A stretch of 64,000 nucleotides of DNA, from NCBI RefSeq assembly GCF_000026545.1, contig NC_011601.1. The stretch is one strand, 5' to 3'. The notes beneath the pieces were generated by a model. That model saw only the letters and a list, made by a program, of their open reading frames with translations, searched no databases and was not told the DNA's origin. The stretch comes from Escherichia coli O127:H6 str. E2348/69. Its GTDB lineage: Bacteria > Pseudomonadota > Gammaproteobacteria > Enterobacterales > Enterobacteriaceae. A program made the translations under genes and the position numbers. Below are positions 37,691 to 43,761 of the stretch, piece after piece (position 1 is the stretch's first letter; each line of letters begins with the position of its first letter).

Positions 37691-38163
37691 TGAAAAAATG
37701 GTTGTTTTGTTTAGTAGGGGTTATTTTCTCTTGTTCTGTGCTGGCACAGACAGAGGAACAGGCGCAAAAGGAACTGAAACGTTATCAGGATATGAAGCCA
37801 TTGGCTGAACAGATGCTTCGGGAAAGTGGAAAACTTTATTACGCTATGCCAGAAGCTGCATCGCAGTATCAGCAGGGAAATATTGAAGAGTGGAAGAATA
37901 TCAAAAAAGGACTAAAACAACTGGATGAACAGGCCAGTAAACTGGGGGACGACCCGCTTGATCCTGTGTATGGTTCCTGCATAAAAATGAAAAACCAGCT
38001 ACAGGATTACTGGTCTAACGTTATCAGGGATGACAGGCAGTTTCTGGAGCGTTCAAGAAATCAGTTTAAAGAATATCGTATGGATTGTTTTGATTCGTTT
38101 GTTTTTGGTAAAGAGCAAATAGAATCAAGAAAAGGCCTGGTTATTCTAGACCTGACTAAATAA
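37687..38163 (+). CDS. Secreted protein with signal peptide (possible lipoprotein), last gene before the early terminator
   Basis: 158-aa ORF MMKKWLFCLVGVIFSCSVLAQTEEQ... Confidence 0.5.
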   Translation: MMKKWLFCLVGVIFSCSVLAQTEEQAQKELKRYQDMKPLAEQMLRESGKLYYAMPEAASQYQQGNIEEWKNIKKGLKQLDEQASKLGDDPLDPVYGSCIKMKNQLQDYWSNVIRDDRQFLERSRNQFKEYRMDCFDSFVFGKEQIESRKGLVILDLTK

Positions 38164-38174
38164 GACTTAGTTTA

Positions 38175-38200
38175 GCCCCTGCCATGCAGGGGCTTTTTTT
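38175..38200 (+). terminator. Rho-independent terminator ending the early transcript
   Basis: agcccctgc-catg-caggggct followed by 7 T. Confidence 0.65.
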
Positions 38201-38263
38201 GTGGTCTGTACAGGCGATCATGTATGGCTATAATAACAGTAAGTTACTACCGGAGACGCCATC

Positions 38264-38731
38264 ATGCAGACCTTCAGTGAAACAGATCTTCGCGATGCGC
38301 AGGCACTGCTGCCCGATTCCGTGCAGCAACTGATTAGCGTGATTGGCTTCCCCGCCCTGACCCGGTTGATTCGTTCTTTTGGTGGCGTGACGTTAAGCGG
38401 TAAAACCGGCGTACACGCCGAACGCACCGGCGGTGTCCATGCCCTGTTACATGACGTGCTCACCGAAGACGAAATCAACAAACTGATCCGCTTTCTTGGC
38501 GGTGCTCCGTTTTACATTCCCCGTTGCGATCATGCGTTACGTGCCCTGCGTAACACCCGTTTTATGGCTGATTTACAGCAGCATGTAAAAGACGGATGCT
38601 CACACCGGCAGGCGCTGGCACTGCTCTGTCCCCGTTACGGCATTTCAGACCGGTACGCATGGCAGCTGATACACCGACGACAAAAACAGACTTCGCTGAA
38701 AAGCCCCACCCAGGTGGGGCTTTTTGATTAA
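38264..38731 (+). CDS. Mor/C-family transcription activator
   Basis: 155-aa ORF directly after the early terminator, the position of the Mu middle/late activators. Confidence 0.65.
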   Translation: MQTFSETDLRDAQALLPDSVQQLISVIGFPALTRLIRSFGGVTLSGKTGVHAERTGGVHALLHDVLTEDEINKLIRFLGGAPFYIPRCDHALRALRNTRFMADLQQHVKDGCSHRQALALLCPRYGISDRYAWQLIHRRQKQTSLKSPTQVGLFD

Positions 38732-38757
38732 TGGGCCTCAGAAAAAAGGAGACACTT

Positions 38758-39036
38758 ATGACCAACTATATGGCACTTGGCGAGTATACGGCCTACTCAG
38801 AGCAGGCCCGGGATGCTGCCGGACGTCGCTTTGCTTATATGAAAAATTTGGCCAGTCAGTTAAACCGAATGGCCGAACAACCGGATATGGTTGTTCAGGA
38901 AGAAGCGTTGCAGTGTGCCATTGCTGACATCATCGCCAGCGAAAACGAGATGCGCGCAGCGATGGAAAAGGCGAACGCCTCTGCTCCGCTTTGTAATAAA
39001 CCTCTTATTACGCCGGATTCTCTTTCCCGCTTCTGA
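38758..39036 (+). CDS. Hypothetical protein
   Basis: ATG at 38758 with RBS aaaaggag; the track ORF begins at 38731. Confidence 0.4.
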   Translation: MTNYMALGEYTAYSEQARDAAGRRFAYMKNLASQLNRMAEQPDMVVQEEALQCAIADIIASENEMRAAMEKANASAPLCNKPLITPDSLSRF

Positions 39037-39218
39037 TTTATCACCCCGCCGCCGCGGGGTGCTGAACTCCCCCAGCAGTACCCACCACACCAGACCGTTT
39101 ACCCTGTCCACTCAGACCACAAGGCACCTTAAGGGATAGCGCCCTGCAAAAGGCTTTTGTGCCTTTGACAGGGTGTTATTTACGGGCCGTCAGTGGCTCA
39201 GATTTACAGGAGAAACTC

Positions 39219-39611
39219 ATGTCTGAACCCTTATCAGGCGGCGGAGCTGTGGCAGTCACCATCGGTGGTGCCAGTGTGTTTGGCCTTCTCACCAATACCG
39301 ATTTCGGGGTCGTGGTGGGCGCGTTTGCCGGGGCGCTTTTTGTTGTCACTCAGCAGAAAGAAATCCCGGTATGGCGAATGGCTATTCACCTGCTCGTCGC
39401 GTTTGTGGTTGGCGTTCTGGGGGCTGGCGTGGCTGCGTCACTGATGCAGTGGCTGACCCACTACAACGACAAACCGCTTGATGCATTGTGTGCGGTCGGT
39501 GTCTCGGCGTTATCCATCAAGATACTGACCTTTCTTTATCAACAGGAAATTTCATCGCTGTTCGGCCTGTTTTCCAGACTGCGCGGCGGAGGGGGTGGAA
39601 ATGGAAAGTAG
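39219..39611 (+). CDS. Membrane protein, putative holin-class lysis protein
   Basis: 130-aa ORF with 3-4 hydrophobic helices and RBS; immediately upstream of the endolysin cluster. Confidence 0.45.
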   Translation: MSEPLSGGGAVAVTIGGASVFGLLTNTDFGVVVGAFAGALFVVTQQKEIPVWRMAIHLLVAFVVGVLGAGVAASLMQWLTHYNDKPLDALCAVGVSALSIKILTFLYQQEISSLFGLFSRLRGGGGGNGK

Positions 39612-39897
39612 CCTTGCCGGTATCGTGAACGTCTGGCTGTGTCTCGCCATTGTGCTGGGGTTGTTTGTGTATCGCCGCCACGGTGCGGCGCATAAACCGA
39701 TGATTACCTGGCTGGCGTACTGGCTGATGCTCGGCTACATCATCATCCCGTTCCGCTGGCTGTCCGGTACATACACGCACTCCAGCTGGCTGGTTGTGGC
39801 GCTGAATCTGGTTTTCTGTGCGCTTATCGTGTGGGCGCACGGGAATTTGTCAAAAATCCTTTCGTTACTGAGGCATCCACATGAAATCAAAAGATGA
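39601..39897 (+). CDS. Membrane protein, putative holin/antiholin
   Basis: 98-aa ORF with 3 hydrophobic helices; stop overlaps the endolysin start. Confidence 0.45.
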   Translation: MESSLAGIVNVWLCLAIVLGLFVYRRHGAAHKPMITWLAYWLMLGYIIIPFRWLSGTYTHSSWLVVALNLVFCALIVWAHGNLSKILSLLRHPHEIKR

Positions 39898-40426
39898 CAT
39901 TTTTGATGAAGTCCTGGGCAAAGAAGGCGGTTACGTCAATCACCCGGACGATAAGGGCGGTCCGACCAAATGGGGCATTACGGAAAAAGTCGCCCGCGCC
40001 CACGGATATCGTGGCGATATGCGCGATTTAACCCGCGAACAGGCGCTGGACATCCTTGAAGCCGATTACTGGTATGGCCCGCGATTTGACCAGATCGCCG
40101 CATTATCCCCTGATATTGCCGCAGAGCTGTGTGATACCGGTGTGAATATGGGGCCAACCGTGGCGTCCAGAATGCTTCAGCGCTGGCTGAATGTGTTCAA
40201 TCTGCGCGGCAGGCTGTACCCGGATATGGACGCAGACGGACGCATCGGGCCTCGTACCATCAGTGCATTGCGCGCCTTCCTGAATAATCGCGGTCAGGAC
40301 GGTGAACGGGTGATGCTGACGGCCCTGAACTGTACGCAGGGGGACCGCTATCTGGAACTGGCAGAGAAACGCGAGGCTAACGAATCGTTTGTTTATGGCT
40401 GGCTGAAGGAGCGCGTGGCGGTATGA
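39881..40426 (+). CDS. Endolysin (GH108-type lysozyme with peptidoglycan-binding domain)
   Basis: 181-aa ORF GGYVNHPDDKGGPTKWGIT... characteristic of the glycoside hydrolase 108 family as I recall it. Confidence 0.75.
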   Translation: MKSKDDIFDEVLGKEGGYVNHPDDKGGPTKWGITEKVARAHGYRGDMRDLTREQALDILEADYWYGPRFDQIAALSPDIAAELCDTGVNMGPTVASRMLQRWLNVFNLRGRLYPDMDADGRIGPRTISALRAFLNNRGQDGERVMLTALNCTQGDRYLELAEKREANESFVYGWLKERVAV

Positions 40427-40605
40427 CGCGTCAGCACTGGACCCACAGAACGCCACGTAAAGCCGCGCGCTGTGTTCTGGCCCTGTTTCTGGTGATGTTG
40501 CTTCCGGTGGGATGCACAGACATTAACAGAGCGGGCCAGCTGTTTGACGCGGCGGCGCAGGTCTGCCGGATTATCGATGGTATCCGGCAGTGTTCACAGA
40601 ACTGA
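40423..40605 (+). CDS. Small lipoprotein-like protein, possible spanin component
   Basis: 60-aa ORF with hydrophobic N-terminus ending ...LLPVGC; ATGA overlap with the endolysin stop. Confidence 0.4.
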   Translation: MTRQHWTHRTPRKAARCVLALFLVMLLPVGCTDINRAGQLFDAAAQVCRIIDGIRQCSQN

Positions 40606-40625
40606 TTTTTTGAAGGTCTGACACA

Positions 40626-40832
40626 GTGAGCATTATCAGATTTACAGAATACAGAGGTTCAGGAGGTGCTGGCGCTGTCATGGTGCTCGCTGAACGCATC
40701 ACCCATTTTTACCGTCAGTACGGTACACATGATGGCACGGTCATTGAACTGGATACCGGGAAAAACGTGTTTGTTCTTGAAAATCCCGACGAAGTTCAGC
40801 GCAGGATTGAACAGGCTCAGAAGGACACTTAA
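40626..40832 (+). CDS. Hypothetical protein
   Basis: 68-aa ORF (probable GTG start). Confidence 0.3.
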   Translation: MSIIRFTEYRGSGGAGAVMVLAERITHFYRQYGTHDGTVIELDTGKNVFVLENPDEVQRRIEQAQKDT

Positions 40833-41332
40833 TGGCGTGGTCACAGGATATCAGGGACAAAGTCCGTAACGGGTACATCTTTGACCAGCTTCCGCTGGAT
40901 ATCGTCGCCATGAAGTACGCCGTGCCGCACGATACCGCGCGGCGCTGGAAAACGCAGGCGATGAAGAACGGCGACGACTGGGACAAGCTGCGGGCCGCTC
41001 ACGCGCTCGCCGGTGACGGGCTGGAAAGTGTCGCCCGCACCGTACTTATCAGTCTGGTGGTGAAGTGTCAGACGACGCTTGAACGGCTGAACCAGAACCC
41101 GGACATCCCGCCGCAGGAGTCCGTCGAACTGCTGGCGAGTCTGTCTGACAGTCTCAGTAAGGCGGTGTCCAGCAGTAAAAAAATCCTGCCGGAAACCGAC
41201 CGGCTGGCCACGGCACTGGAAGTGGTGCAGCGGCTCGGCGCGTTCATCAAGGAGCGTCACCCGGCACAGTATGCCCCGTTTCTTGAGGTGCTCGAAGGCT
41301 TCGCTAAAGAGCTTGAGGATAATTTCAGTTAA
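40832..41332 (+). CDS. Mu gp27-like protein (DUF1804; putative small terminase/DNA-recognition subunit)
   Basis: 166-aa ORF two genes upstream of the large terminase (the methyltransferase gene intervenes). Confidence 0.55.
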   Translation: MAWSQDIRDKVRNGYIFDQLPLDIVAMKYAVPHDTARRWKTQAMKNGDDWDKLRAAHALAGDGLESVARTVLISLVVKCQTTLERLNQNPDIPPQESVELLASLSDSLSKAVSSSKKILPETDRLATALEVVQRLGAFIKERHPAQYAPFLEVLEGFAKELEDNFS

Positions 41333-41378
41333 CCACAGCGGCCCGGTTTTCCGGGCCGTCTGATATTCGGGATTTGTA

Positions 41379-42119
41379 ATGCAAAAACAGATTATTGGTA
41401 ACGCAACGTTGTATTGCGGTGATGTTCTTGATGTGCTGCCGGCGTTATCCGAACGTTTTGATGCCGTCATTACCGACCCGCCTTACAGCAGTGGTGGCAC
41501 ACATAAATCAGACCGCAGCATGGCCCCTTCGGACAAGTATGTCGGTCACACCCAGTATGCCGAGTTCAGCGGGGATAACCGCGACCAGCGCAGCTGGGCA
41601 TACTGGAGCACCCTGTGGATGTCCGGGGCTGCCCGCCTTGTGCGCCCCGGTGGTTATGTCATGGTGTTCAGTGACTGGCGACAGCTTCCCACCATGACCG
41701 ACGTTTTTCAGGCCGGTGGTGTGCTGTGGCGTGGTCTTGTTGTCTGGGATAAAACGCAGGCTTCCCGTGCGCCACACACCGGCTATTTCCGGCATCAGGC
41801 CGAGTATGTGGTCTGGGGCAGCAACGGAAAACTCGACAAATGCCCGCACGGTGGCCCGTTCCCGGGTGTGATTACGCAGCGCGTTGTCCCGTCCGAAAAA
41901 CTGCATATGACGGCAAAGCCAGTTCAGTTGATGGCCGAGCTGGTTAAACCGCTGGCACCGGATGCGCACGTTCTCGATCCGTTTATGGGAAGCGGCACCA
42001 CCGCCATCCCTGTACTGGCCCGTGGCGGACGGTTTACCGGCATTGAAATGACTAACCAGTATTTTGATATCGCCTGCGCACGTCTCGAAAAAGCGCAGGC
42101 AGAAGCAGCGCAGGTGTGA
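41379..42119 (+). CDS. Orphan DNA methyltransferase, beta-class (motif IV before motif I), N6-adenine or N4-cytosine
   Basis: 246-aa ORF with catalytic DPPY near the N-terminus (ITDPPYSS) and AdoMet-binding FMGSGTT near the C-terminus; no adjacent endonuclease ORF. Confidence 0.85.
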   Translation: MQKQIIGNATLYCGDVLDVLPALSERFDAVITDPPYSSGGTHKSDRSMAPSDKYVGHTQYAEFSGDNRDQRSWAYWSTLWMSGAARLVRPGGYVMVFSDWRQLPTMTDVFQAGGVLWRGLVVWDKTQASRAPHTGYFRHQAEYVVWGSNGKLDKCPHGGPFPGVITQRVVPSEKLHMTAKPVQLMAELVKPLAPDAHVLDPFMGSGTTAIPVLARGGRFTGIEMTNQYFDIACARLEKAQAEAAQV

Positions 42120-42120
42120 C

Positions 42121-43761
42121 GTGGCAAAACGTAAACTTTCCATTAAAGAGTTTCAGAGAAGCTTACAGGAGTACATCGCCAACCTCCGCCAGACCATTGA
42201 GGCTGAATGTCTGGGGTTCGATGTAAACCCGCAGGCCACACAGGCCCGCCGGGCGGCAGTCTGTGACCCGGTGACGGGCTACGATTATTTTGTCGAAAAC
42301 TATTTCCCGCACTACGTCCGCAACCCGGCAAAAAGCGAGCTGCATAAATACCTGTTCAGCCGTCTGCCACAGGTTGTGGCAAGCCCGGACCCGGAGAACG
42401 ACGCCATCGCCGCGCCCCGTGGTGAAGCAAAATCCACGCTGGTGACTCAGCTGTTTACCCTGTGGAACATTATCCGGGCCATTAAACATTATCCGGTCAT
42501 CATTATGGACAGTATCGACCAGGCTTATCCGATGCTGGAAGCCATCAAGGCTGAACTGGAATTTAACCCCCGTTTAAAAAACGATTTCCCGGAAGTGTGC
42601 GGACAGGGGCGCGTCTGGCGTATGGGGACCATCGTCACGGCCAACAATATCAAGGTGACCGTTGCTGGTAGTGGTAAAAAACTGCGTGGGCTGCGCCACG
42701 GTCCGTACCGTCCTGACCTGGTTATCCTCGACGACATCGAGAACGACGAGATGGTGCGTAGCCCGGAGCAGCGCGACAAGCTGCATGACTGGCTTACCAA
42801 AACCGTGATGCCGCTGGGCGAGGCTGGCGGTAAAACCGATATTATTTATATCGGAACCATCCTGCATTACGACTCCGTGCTGTCGCGCACACTCAATAAC
42901 CCGATGTGGAAAACAGCCCGCTTTAAGGCTGTTATTCAGTGGCCTGCCAACATGAAACTGTGGGACGAGTGGGAAGAACTCATCCGCAACAAACAGCCGG
43001 AAGCAGCGGAGGCACTTTACCGACAGAACGAAGCCGACATGCTCGCCGGGTCGGTGGTGTCATGGGCGGCGCGTCCCCTGCTGGCGCTGATGAAAATCCG
43101 TGTCCGTGACGGTCATGACACCTTTGATTCTGAATACCAGAACGACCCGGTCAGCGGTGAAGATGCGCTGTTTGCGGGCTGCATTAAGTTCTGGGTTAAC
43201 CGTCTTGATGAATGGGTGTTTTATGGTGCTGTTGACCCCAGTCTCGGGAAGAAGAATAAAAACCGCGACCCGTCGGCCATTCTCGTGGGGGGCTTTAACC
43301 GTTTTACCGGCATTCTGGATGTGGTTGAAGCCGATATCCGCCGACGCCTGCCAAATAAACTTATCGAAGACGTGATTAAGTATCAGCGGGAATACCACTG
43401 TCTGTGCTGGTCGTTTGAGTCCGTCCAGTTTCAGGAGTTTCTGCGCACCGTGCTGGTTGAGCGTTCGGCGGCGCTGGGCGTTCCGGTTCCGGCGCTGCCG
43501 GTCATCCCGCTGGAGGATAAAGCGCTGCGTATCGAATCCCTTCAGCCGCATATGGCCAACGGCCTGATCCGCATCAGTCCGGCACATCAGACGCTGATTG
43601 ACCAGCTGCGCCACTACCCCAAAGCCGACCACGATGATGGCCCGGACTGTCTGCACATGCTGTGGACGCTGGCGGTATCGCGTAGCGCAAAATTTCAGAT
43701 ACACACCCCACGCAGCACCGGGCGTGACCGTGGCGGGCGTTTTGGTTCAGGAGGATGGTAA
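42121..43761 (+). CDS. Terminase large subunit (Mu gp28-like)
   Basis: Large ORF upstream of the portal gene with ATPase-like segment (PRGEAKST) and acidic nuclease-like segments. Start set at GTG 42121 just after the methyltransferase stop; an in-frame ATG at 42064 would overlap that gene. Confidence 0.75.
   Translation: MAKRKLSIKEFQRSLQEYIANLRQTIEAECLGFDVNPQATQARRAAVCDPVTGYDYFVENYFPHYVRNPAKSELHKYLFSRLPQVVASPDPENDAIAAPRGEAKSTLVTQLFTLWNIIRAIKHYPVIIMDSIDQAYPMLEAIKAELEFNPRLKNDFPEVCGQGRVWRMGTIVTANNIKVTVAGSGKKLRGLRHGPYRPDLVILDDIENDEMVRSPEQRDKLHDWLTKTVMPLGEAGGKTDIIYIGTILHYDSVLSRTLNNPMWKTARFKAVIQWPANMKLWDEWEELIRNKQPEAAEALYRQNEADMLAGSVVSWAARPLLALMKIRVRDGHDTFDSEYQNDPVSGEDALFAGCIKFWVNRLDEWVFYGAVDPSLGKKNKNRDPSAILVGGFNRFTGILDVVEADIRRRLPNKLIEDVIKYQREYHCLCWSFESVQFQEFLRTVLVERSAALGVPVPALPVIPLEDKALRIESLQPHMANGLIRISPAHQTLIDQLRHYPKADHDDGPDCLHMLWTLAVSRSAKFQIHTPRSTGRDRGGRFGSGGW

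Follow-up and report, generated by a model that had tools for sequence, protein, structure and literature searches.

Introduction

The occurrence of a small DNA methyltransferase gene between two packaging genes of a Mu-like prophage raises the question of what the encoded enzyme does there, i.e., whether it would protect the progeny phage DNA, act on the lysogenic host or take part in packaging itself. This gene, here called the MTase gene, belongs to a complete-looking Mu-like prophage that splits eutC in enteropathogenic Escherichia coli E2348/69, and the window analysed is the whole stretch of 64,000 nucleotides in which it lies, 100% identical to the chromosome of that strain. The ORF is 100% identical to the E2348/69 RefSeq entry named 'DNA-methyltransferase' (WP_001171800.1), which means that its recognition as a DNA methyltransferase is not new. 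An earlier sequence-only reading of this DNA had recognised the same 246-residue ORF with a DPPY and an FMGSGTT motif, and its coordinates were found to be exact, the motifs lying at residues 33–36 and 202–208. Searches of the literature for the E2348/69 methylome, WP_001171800 and the BPP-1 protein Bpm found no methylome or biochemical data, and no experimental specificity, for this MTase or a close relative.

Judged by its pattern of substitution, the ORF is a functional gene under constraint. Its dN/dS ratio (ω) is 0.045 against the Yersinia orthologue and 0.084 against the Serratia orthologue, values for which dS is saturated, and an alignment with 46 homologues of 54–83% identity contains 58 invariant columns. 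A purine-rich, Shine–Dalgarno-like element stands 5′ of the start codon in E. coli, Yersinia and Serratia. Two long antisense ORFs overlapping the MTase region gave no family matches.

Position in the prophage and expected expression

The prophage carries a repressor, a Mu-type transposase, an AAA ATPase, a GemA-like protein, a Mor-family protein, holins and a GH108 lysin, followed by DUF1804, terL, a Mu-type portal (DUF935), Mu F, a protease and the gpT head protein, and by sheath, tape measure, baseplate and tail fibre genes. At its right end, a duplicated, inverted set of tail-fibre and assembly genes is followed by eutC. The genes mom, com and gin are absent from the prophage. A Com-like ORF was also looked for upstream of the MTase gene and none was found, the 68-residue ORF at 40626–40832 having no cysteines and matching PHROG 7691, whose function is not known.

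Between the stop codon of the DUF1804 gene, whose counterparts in related loci show PF08822, and the MTase start codon there are 46 nt, and the MTase TGA is separated by a single nucleotide from the GTG of terL (junction TGAcGTG), an arrangement that is the same in Yersinia and Serratia. The MTase ORF ends in 9 nt (CAGGTGTGA) that include the Shine–Dalgarno sequence (ribosome-binding site) of terL. In phage Mu, the corresponding gp27 and gp28 are contiguous within the C-dependent lys transcript; nothing lies between the end of gp27 at 12891 and the start of gp28 at 12899, and the sequence-only reading had likewise noted that Mu has no such gene at this position. That reading had also remarked on the lack of an adjacent restriction endonuclease, which holds for the entire element: no endonuclease adjoins the MTase gene and none is annotated anywhere in the prophage. 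The cognate endonuclease that a Type II restriction–modification system would place beside its methyltransferase is thus missing, the neighbours being the DUF1804 gene and terL, and the MTase is an orphan without a restriction partner. The coordinates of these and the other features are collected in Table 1.

Table 1. Features of the MTase locus, numbered from the first nucleotide of the window
Feature	Coordinates	Strand	Basis
Mor/C-family late transcriptional activator, head of the lysis–packaging block that includes the MTase gene	38264..38731	+	RefSeq Mor family; PHROG 836 'late transcriptional activator', E=3.5e-42
DUF1804 / Mu gp27-like gene (small-terminase-like, DNA-binding), upstream neighbour	40832..41332	+	RefSeq DUF1804; PHROG 756, E=2.5e-67
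GC-rich hairpin just past the DUF1804 stop; part of the flank, not of the MTase segment	41336..41362	+	fold energy -22.3 kcal/mol, z = -5.9
Presence/absence segment, 743 nt; 'TGTATAC' stands in its place in MTase-less prophages	41368..42110	+	junction sequences read
MTase gene (orphan beta-class DNA methyltransferase)	41379..42119	+	246 aa, ATG start; RefSeq WP_001171800.1
Motif IV DPPY, residues 33–36, catalytic / target-base pocket	41475..41486	+	read from sequence
Beta6–beta7 hairpin loop, residues 125–140, KTQASRAPHTGYFRHQ, candidate DNA-contact loop	41751..41798	+	model and conservation
HMTAKP, residues 176–181, counterpart of the conserved HPTxKP element preceding motif I in beta-class MTases	41904..41921	+	alignment
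Motif I FMGSGTT, residues 202–208, AdoMet-binding loop	41982..42002	+	read from sequence
terL, terminase large subunit, GTG start	42121..43761	+	RefSeq; PHROG 38, E=1.1e-142

A sigma-70 consensus scan of 38000–43000 returned one site only, at 38207–38234, just upstream of the Mor/C-family activator gene, and no promoter-like site within 38235–43000; the scan is a crude one, which a weak or activator-dependent promoter could escape. Because there is no promoter-like site near the MTase gene, its stop lies 1 nt from the start of terL and a Mor/C activator heads the block, we infer that the MTase is expressed only late, alongside the packaging enzymes. Orphan MTases of other prophages, e.g., M.EcoGII, were reported to be silent in lysogens (PMC5778455), and comparable silence has been described elsewhere (PMC6602927). 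The hairpin between the DUF1804 and MTase genes is found in alleles with and without the MTase gene and is kept in Yersinia, where a C-G pair of the stem has become U-A. It lacks a U-tract and did not register as a terminator.

Assignment to the beta class

The profile searches place the MTase among the DNA amino-methyltransferases. The Pfam model PF01555 (N6_N4_Mtase) matches in two segments (4.3e-12 for residues 174–232 and 5.1e-08 for residues 28–151), PHROG 67 'DNA methyltransferase' matches with E=1.3e-55, and the PADLOC model for Type II MTases (MTase_II, PDLC03321) matches with E=7.6e-65. More than 7,500 homologues were found at E<=1e-5. Matches occur in 703 sequenced phage records, and at least 80% of the protein is covered in 568 of them. 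All NCBIfam models stay below their cut-offs, with 76.8 bits (cut-off 244) for the plasmid-type model PRK13699 and 54.9 bits (cut-off 830) for the CcrM equivalog NF050803, which aligns with the C-terminal 70 residues only.

Among the solved structures, the sole full-length match by sequence is M1.HpyAVI of H. pylori (3e-15; PDB 5HEK/5HFJ), whereas the alignments with CcrM, M.BceJIV, M.MboIIA and M.RsrI are confined to the surroundings of motifs X–I. An AlphaFold (AF2) model built on 46 homologues (pLDDT 85.7, pTM 0.86) was compared with known structures using Foldseek, and every match was a beta-class amino-MTase, with M1.HpyAVI, CcrM and M.BceJIV, which are adenine enzymes, at the head of the list. 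The model superposes on these three and on M.MboIIA and M.RsrI with E values of 1e-15 to 1e-10, and the Foldseek probability is 1.00 for 5HFJ, 6PBD, 8URK, 1G60 and 1EG2. Two N4-cytosine enzymes, the rotifer N4CMT (8s9m) and M.PvuII (1boo), are also among the matches (E 1e-14 to 1e-11).

The assignment to the beta class of DNA N6/N4 amino-methyltransferases is solid, since the profile, sequence and predicted-fold matches all lead to beta-class enzymes, and the order of the motifs is the one proper to the class. The sequence-only reading had proposed this class from the motif order, and had likened the protein to CcrM and M.HinfI. The likeness to these GANTC enzymes holds at the level of the class, i.e., for the beta motif order and the fold (6PBD, E=1e-15). 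It does not extend to the family, in view of the CcrM model score given above and of the extra C-terminal DNA-binding domain of CcrM, which the MTase lacks. Based on family and fold, the protein is predicted to be an AdoMet-dependent DNA methyltransferase.

Motif IV of amino-MTases typically has Asp in N6-adenine enzymes and Ser in N4-cytosine enzymes. In the MTase, the stretch around this motif reads TDPPYSSGG, and T32, D33, P34, P35, Y36, S37, S38 and G39 are invariant in the 46 homologues. As the motif IV Asp is invariant, N6-adenine is favoured over N4-cytosine, and the product is most probably N6-methyladenine.

Motifs and candidate DNA-contact loops

Motif I is the best-aligned stretch of the MTase with all solved beta-class MTases; F202, G204 and S205 are invariant among the 46 homologues, so that FxGS is kept. 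The preceding HMTAKP element aligns with 'HPTQKS' of M1.HpyAVI, and its H176, T178, K180 and P181 are invariant. In the model, beta4 (27–32) leads to DPPY, a loop of 33 residues modelled with lower confidence (37–69), a helix (70–85) and beta5, which are followed by a helix (103–112), beta6 (116–124), a hairpin (125–140) and beta7 (141–148). Only about 27 residues separate beta7 from HMTAKP, which leaves no discrete target-recognition domain (TRD). The C-terminus extends 38 residues past motif I and ends as a single helix (226–245).

This architecture is that of M1.HpyAVI, the best full-length match in both sequence and fold (232 vs. 246 residues), which likewise has DPPY first and FxGxG last. 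M1.HpyAVI was reported to possess a short disordered TRD, a flexible loop past DPPY and a conserved beta6–beta7 hairpin, to be a dimer in the crystal and in solution, and to insert, as its authors proposed, the hairpin corresponding to MTase residues 125–140 into the minor groove (PMC5173035). The MTase shares the long loop after DPPY, the conserved hairpin and the very short TRD. However, the two proteins are only about 22% identical, and M1.HpyAVI is encoded in a chromosomal restriction–modification locus and reads GAGG/GAAG, in contrast to the phage-borne, orphan MTase.

By analogy, the MTase is probably a homodimer, and DNA would probably be read by two flexible loops, residues 37–69 and 125–140; a review of beta-class enzymes is consistent with a homodimer that reads DNA in this manner (PMC7544214). 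In the beta6–beta7 hairpin, residues 131–137 have pLDDT below 50, and eight residues (R130, P132, H133, G135, Y136, R138, H139 and Q140) are invariant in the 46 sequences. The same loop differs in the actinophage members of the family. The invariance of the candidate DNA-contact loops in proteobacterial members and their difference in actinophages suggest a defined sequence specificity common to the proteobacterial subgroup.

Relatives in other phages

Phage-borne orphan N6_N4 MTases of the same subfamily include Bpm of BPP-1 (Bordetella), gp20 of KS5 and gp28 of KL3 (Burkholderia), gp04 of Smp131 (Stenotrophomonas) and the homologue in Chuche (Escherichia), which show 47–55% full-length identity to the MTase, have the same invariant motifs and are without an endonuclease (PMC3091744). 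They differ in position, bpm following cro in BPP-1 and the P2-like genes being paired with Com near tail or portal genes, whereas the MTase gene stands beside terL in a Mu-type late operon without Com. In the P2-like phages and prophages (Chuche, Smp131 and a Delftia prophage), the homologue is placed at the end of the element and comes directly behind, and often overlaps, the gene of a Com-type zinc-finger translational regulator; the Com-paired homologue of KS5 was known from the literature (PMC3091744). In the Delftia prophage, the Com-like ORF beside the homologue had been missed by gene calling.

Mu-like prophages also hold relatives in other slots. In Salmonella, a relative lies between holin and lysozyme in the lysis cassette, and in S. 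marcescens a 60%-identical homologue closes the prophage on its right side, i.e., in the mom position, abutting the host men genes. Actinophage homologues are found in early or right-end regions, the PFR1 copy being near recET. The homologues in early or replication modules (BPP-1 and PFR1) indicate that the family as a whole is not tied to late expression. In all slots compared, the relatives are orphans. The MTase gene is a routine phage accessory gene; phage orphan methyltransferases are common, and the family is already represented in PHROGs and PADLOC. Its comparative value is modest and comes from one subfamily recurring at several late or cargo sites in transposable and P2-like phages, the mom slot and the position behind Com among them.

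Several better-known proteins were considered as relatives and set aside. Hia5, Hin1523 and Nma1821 are nearly non-specific adenine MTases that stand in place of mom in Mu-like prophages (Drozdz et al. 2012, PMC3299994), and they resemble the present system in that a Mu-like prophage without mom has an adenine MTase instead, presumably for anti-restriction. Unlike the MTase, they are alpha-class and Dam-related, with FxGxG first and DPPY at about residue 194, and are located at the mom position (PMC3299994). Since the motif order is opposite and only the MTase fold is common to both, homology was rejected, and these enzymes are analogues rather than homologues. The MTase accordingly has neither the alpha-class order nor the right-end location of that group.

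M.EcoGII, a non-specific beta-class prophage MTase (PMC5778455), is likewise a prophage-encoded orphan for which silence in the lysogen is expected. In contrast to the MTase, it has 349 residues, and its gene lies downstream of Q in lambdoid phages of the Stx type. A BLASTP comparison with the M.EcoGII homologue of phage 1720a-02 gave just two short alignments, of 56 and 32 residues, at the shared motifs IV and X–I (34% identity over the 56), so that the likeness is at the motif level and full-length homology was rejected. Burkholderia phiE125 gp27, named 'DNA adenine methylase', was dismissed as a characterised relative, having DPPY alone in common with the MTase. The Stx-prophage protein called a 'DNA adenine methyltransferase', M.EcoPA8orf6770P, is an MT-A70-type rRNA methyltransferase with a DPPW active-site motif and a partner subunit (PMC10810198); it was also rejected, as MT-A70/DPPW differs from PF01555/DPPY. 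Mom of phage Mu, finally, is not an AdoMet methyltransferase and has no sequence relation to the MTase (PMC3299994), and neither mom nor com is in the prophage; the resemblance is that of a late-acting phage DNA modification, some MTase relatives being in the mom slot or paired with Com.

Presence, absence and age in the lineage

Among 5,426 complete genomes of E. coli, 34–35 carry the MTase gene, CP059840, CP018991 and CP026935 being examples. In about 19 further genomes, the DUF1804 and terL flanks are about 97% identical and enclose a clean gene-sized gap, so that about one third of the near-identical E. coli prophages are without the gene. The final 9 nt of the MTase ORF, i.e., those containing the terL ribosome-binding site, are common to the empty allele. 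The MTase-less sister prophage has no mom, no com, no other MTase and no substitute modification gene, showing that the MTase is dispensable and that replacement of mom is thus not obligatory. The same finding rules out a complementary distribution of the MTase gene with mom. Prophages with and without the gene (e.g., those of the E2348/69 type and of the strain 47-1826 type), being otherwise nearly identical, provide a natural pair for gauging the effect of the methylase on host range in the face of restriction.

Mu-like prophages of Yersinia and Serratia carry the MTase gene, at 83% and 77% identity, in the identical slot between DUF1804 and terL, and the flanks show comparable values (Yersinia/Serratia: DUF1804 87/75%, TerL 91/90%, portal 77/73%). 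The GC and GC3 contents of the gene are like those of its neighbours. The neighbour-like composition and the co-divergence with the flanks across genera rule out a recent horizontal insertion. Because the same slot is occupied in three genera with divergence parallel to that of the neighbours, the MTase gene is an old resident of this phage lineage and not a recent gain by the E2348/69 prophage. The sequence-only reading had described the gene as inserted between the gp27-like and terminase genes; its position is as described, but the word 'inserted' does not fit this history, a presence/absence polymorphism within E. coli notwithstanding. The empty E. coli allele may have arisen either by deletion or by recombination from an MTase-less lineage.

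Proposed role and alternatives

The explanation favoured here, with moderate confidence, is that the gene encodes a late-expressed orphan beta-class MTase, probably specific for N6-adenine, that shields progeny phage DNA from restriction. From the place of the gene in the late lysis–packaging block, the MTase would be made only after induction, together with terminase. The putative homodimer would read the DNA with loops 37–69 and 125–140 and methylate the replicated phage DNA before headful packaging, and the methylated progeny would then resist the restriction systems of the next host. The replacement of mom with an adenine methylase in other Mu-like prophages provides a precedent (PMC3299994). 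The anti-restriction role is proposed by analogy, and self-protection is plausible. In Mu, this job is done by mom/com, the module that is absent here. Points that count against the explanation are that PF01555 spans both N6-adenine and N4-cytosine enzymes, with a rotifer N4-cytosine MTase among the top fold matches; that the MTase-less sisters have no substitute; that some relatives are in early modules; and that Com also accompanies unrelated cargo.

A related but distinct possibility is that the MTase is an adenine methylase of relaxed or no specificity, a functional analogue of Mu Mom that would blanket the phage DNA with m6A against many restriction enzymes. The lack of a discrete TRD would fit such an enzyme, as the short disordered TRD of M1.HpyAVI has been linked to promiscuity (PMC5173035), and so would the lack of mom in this prophage, the homologue in the mom slot of S. 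marcescens, the pairing with Com in P2-like phages and the apparent confinement of expression to a late operon, which is expected of a potentially toxic enzyme (PMC5778455). However, the equally compact M1.HpyAVI still reads 4-bp GAGG-type sites (PMC5173035), and the candidate DNA-contact loops, rich in invariant polar residues yet different in actinophages, look more like loops that read sequence. In addition, the likeness to M.EcoGII-type enzymes is limited to shared motifs, and the motif order of Hia5 is opposite. Broad methylation of this kind is therefore considered unlikely. The wider proposal that the MTase and its proteobacterial-phage subfamily are the Mom-equivalent of mom-less Mu-like and P2-like phages, constituting, next to the alpha-class Hia5 group and the 349-residue beta-class M.EcoGII, a third, unusually small, independent family of broad-spectrum anti-restriction methylases, is likewise a tentative one that we would not favour. 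Pairing with Com is weakened as an argument for a Mom-like role by the Com homologues that stand beside unrelated cargo genes (PMC4684702). If the MTase were indeed non-specific, its small size would be attractive for m6A footprinting methods, which now use Hia5 or M.EcoGII.

Returning to the favoured reading of a protective adenine methylase, its chemistry could be mistaken in that the MTase might be an N4-cytosine rather than an N6-adenine enzyme. PF01555 includes both chemistries (PMC3091744), and the N4-cytosine enzymes 8s9m and 1boo are among the fold matches, as noted above. Against this, the DPPY of motif IV is invariant, the best matches in sequence and in fold are adenine enzymes, and the automated source names read 'adenine-specific', which is weak evidence. 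N4-cytosine methylation is thus quite improbable.

Orphan MTases can regulate genes, and the MTase might accordingly be an epigenetic regulator in the lysogen that methylates the host chromosome and alters gene expression in the host or the prophage. The sequence-only reading had raised chromosome methylation by the prophage enzyme as a second role, beside self-protection. A different, MT-A70-type methyltransferase of Stx prophages does affect induction and virulence (PMC10810198), and the strong hairpin upstream of the MTase gene could mark a separate regulatory unit. However, that hairpin is also present in the MTase-less alleles, the crude sigma-70 scan found no promoter-like site from 38235 up to the gene, the gene is wedged in a late operon directly before terL, comparable enzymes of other prophages stay silent in the lysogen (PMC5778455, PMC6602927), and about one third of the near-identical prophages lack the gene. 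Chromosome methylation in the lysogen is thus disfavoured, being unlikely and the less likely of the two roles suggested earlier, and a regulatory function in the lysogen is very doubtful.

The least probable alternative, to which hardly any weight is given, is that the methylation is tied to packaging, by marking a pac-type site or regulating terminase in the way that Dam methylation regulates packaging in phage P1: this would explain the place of the MTase gene between two terminase genes and the conservation of that position and of the stop/start junction in three genera, but the homologues of other Mu-like prophages lie elsewhere (lysis cassette or right end), the MTase-less sisters retain the terminase genes at about 97% identity, and Mu packages its DNA with no such gene.

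The DUF1804–terL junction

A strong hairpin (fold energy − 22.3 kcal/mol, z = − 5.9) follows the DUF1804 (Mu gp27-like) gene and is present in both the MTase-less and the MTase-containing alleles. Its counterpart is retained in a Yersinia prophage with a compensatory change in the stem, and a less strong counterpart is found in Serratia. The hairpin lacks a U-tract, suggesting that its role may lie in RNA processing or stability and not in termination.

The match to the E. coli RM9088 prophage (NZ_CP042298.1, H123) begins exactly at the end of DUF1804, i.e., at query position 706 (window position 41331), which indicates that the MTase and terL are common to the RM9088 and E2348/69 prophages while the upstream gene is different. 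This match start also points to a recombination breakpoint at the hairpin. In the Salmonella Mu-like prophages (L009/L010), the MTase is located in the lysis cassette, and other small genes occupy the junction. The DUF1804–terL junction looks like a hot spot for cargo in general.

Positions of the features discussed (window coordinates unless a locus is named)
Feature	Position	Location	Details
GC-rich hairpin	41336-41362	immediately 3′ of the DUF1804 stop codon	GCGGCCCGG-UUUU-CCGGGCCGU
Small genes	L009/L010 6542-7759	DUF1804–terL junction, Salmonella Mu-like prophages	72 aa, 159 aa (reverse strand), 57 aa
Com-type zinc finger ORF	L011 3802-4098	Delftia P2-like prophage	98 aa, uncalled; PHROG 6417, 1e-19
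Tail-fibre and assembly gene pair, then second pair inverted	61191-63433	prophage right end	
eutC (ethanolamine ammonia-lyase small subunit) fragments	~27507-27944 and ~63640-63912		annotated pseudogenes
SNF2-related protein, DUF1963 protein, small hypothetical gene	~21379-25148 (L001 1-3770)	adjoin eutR, outside the prophage	

Com–MTase pairing and the prophage right end

In the Delftia P2-like prophage, an ORF with a zinc finger of the Com type (Com being a translational regulator) overlaps the gene for the MTase homologue at its start, and the same Com–MTase pairing occurs in phages Chuche and Smp131. At the right end of the E2348/69 prophage, from the tail-fibre genes to the host eutC fragment, neither com nor mom is present. 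The arrangement of a tail-fibre and assembly gene pair with a second, inverted pair after it resembles the Mu G segment, and no invertase gene (gin) lies between these gene pairs and the eutC fragment.

Insertion site and other carriers

The Mu-like prophage cuts the host eutC into two fragments, and eutA, just past the window edge, is truncated according to RefSeq. Because eutC is split and eutA is marked as truncated, the eut operon of E2348/69 looks inactivated. The gene group adjoining eutR may be an inserted island.

Two matches to the MTase–terL region, in E. coli NZ_OZ547097.1 and NZ_OZ547049.1, lie on plasmids of ~249 kb, not on chromosomes, which argues that a Mu-like element of the E2348/69 prophage type has transposed into large plasmids.
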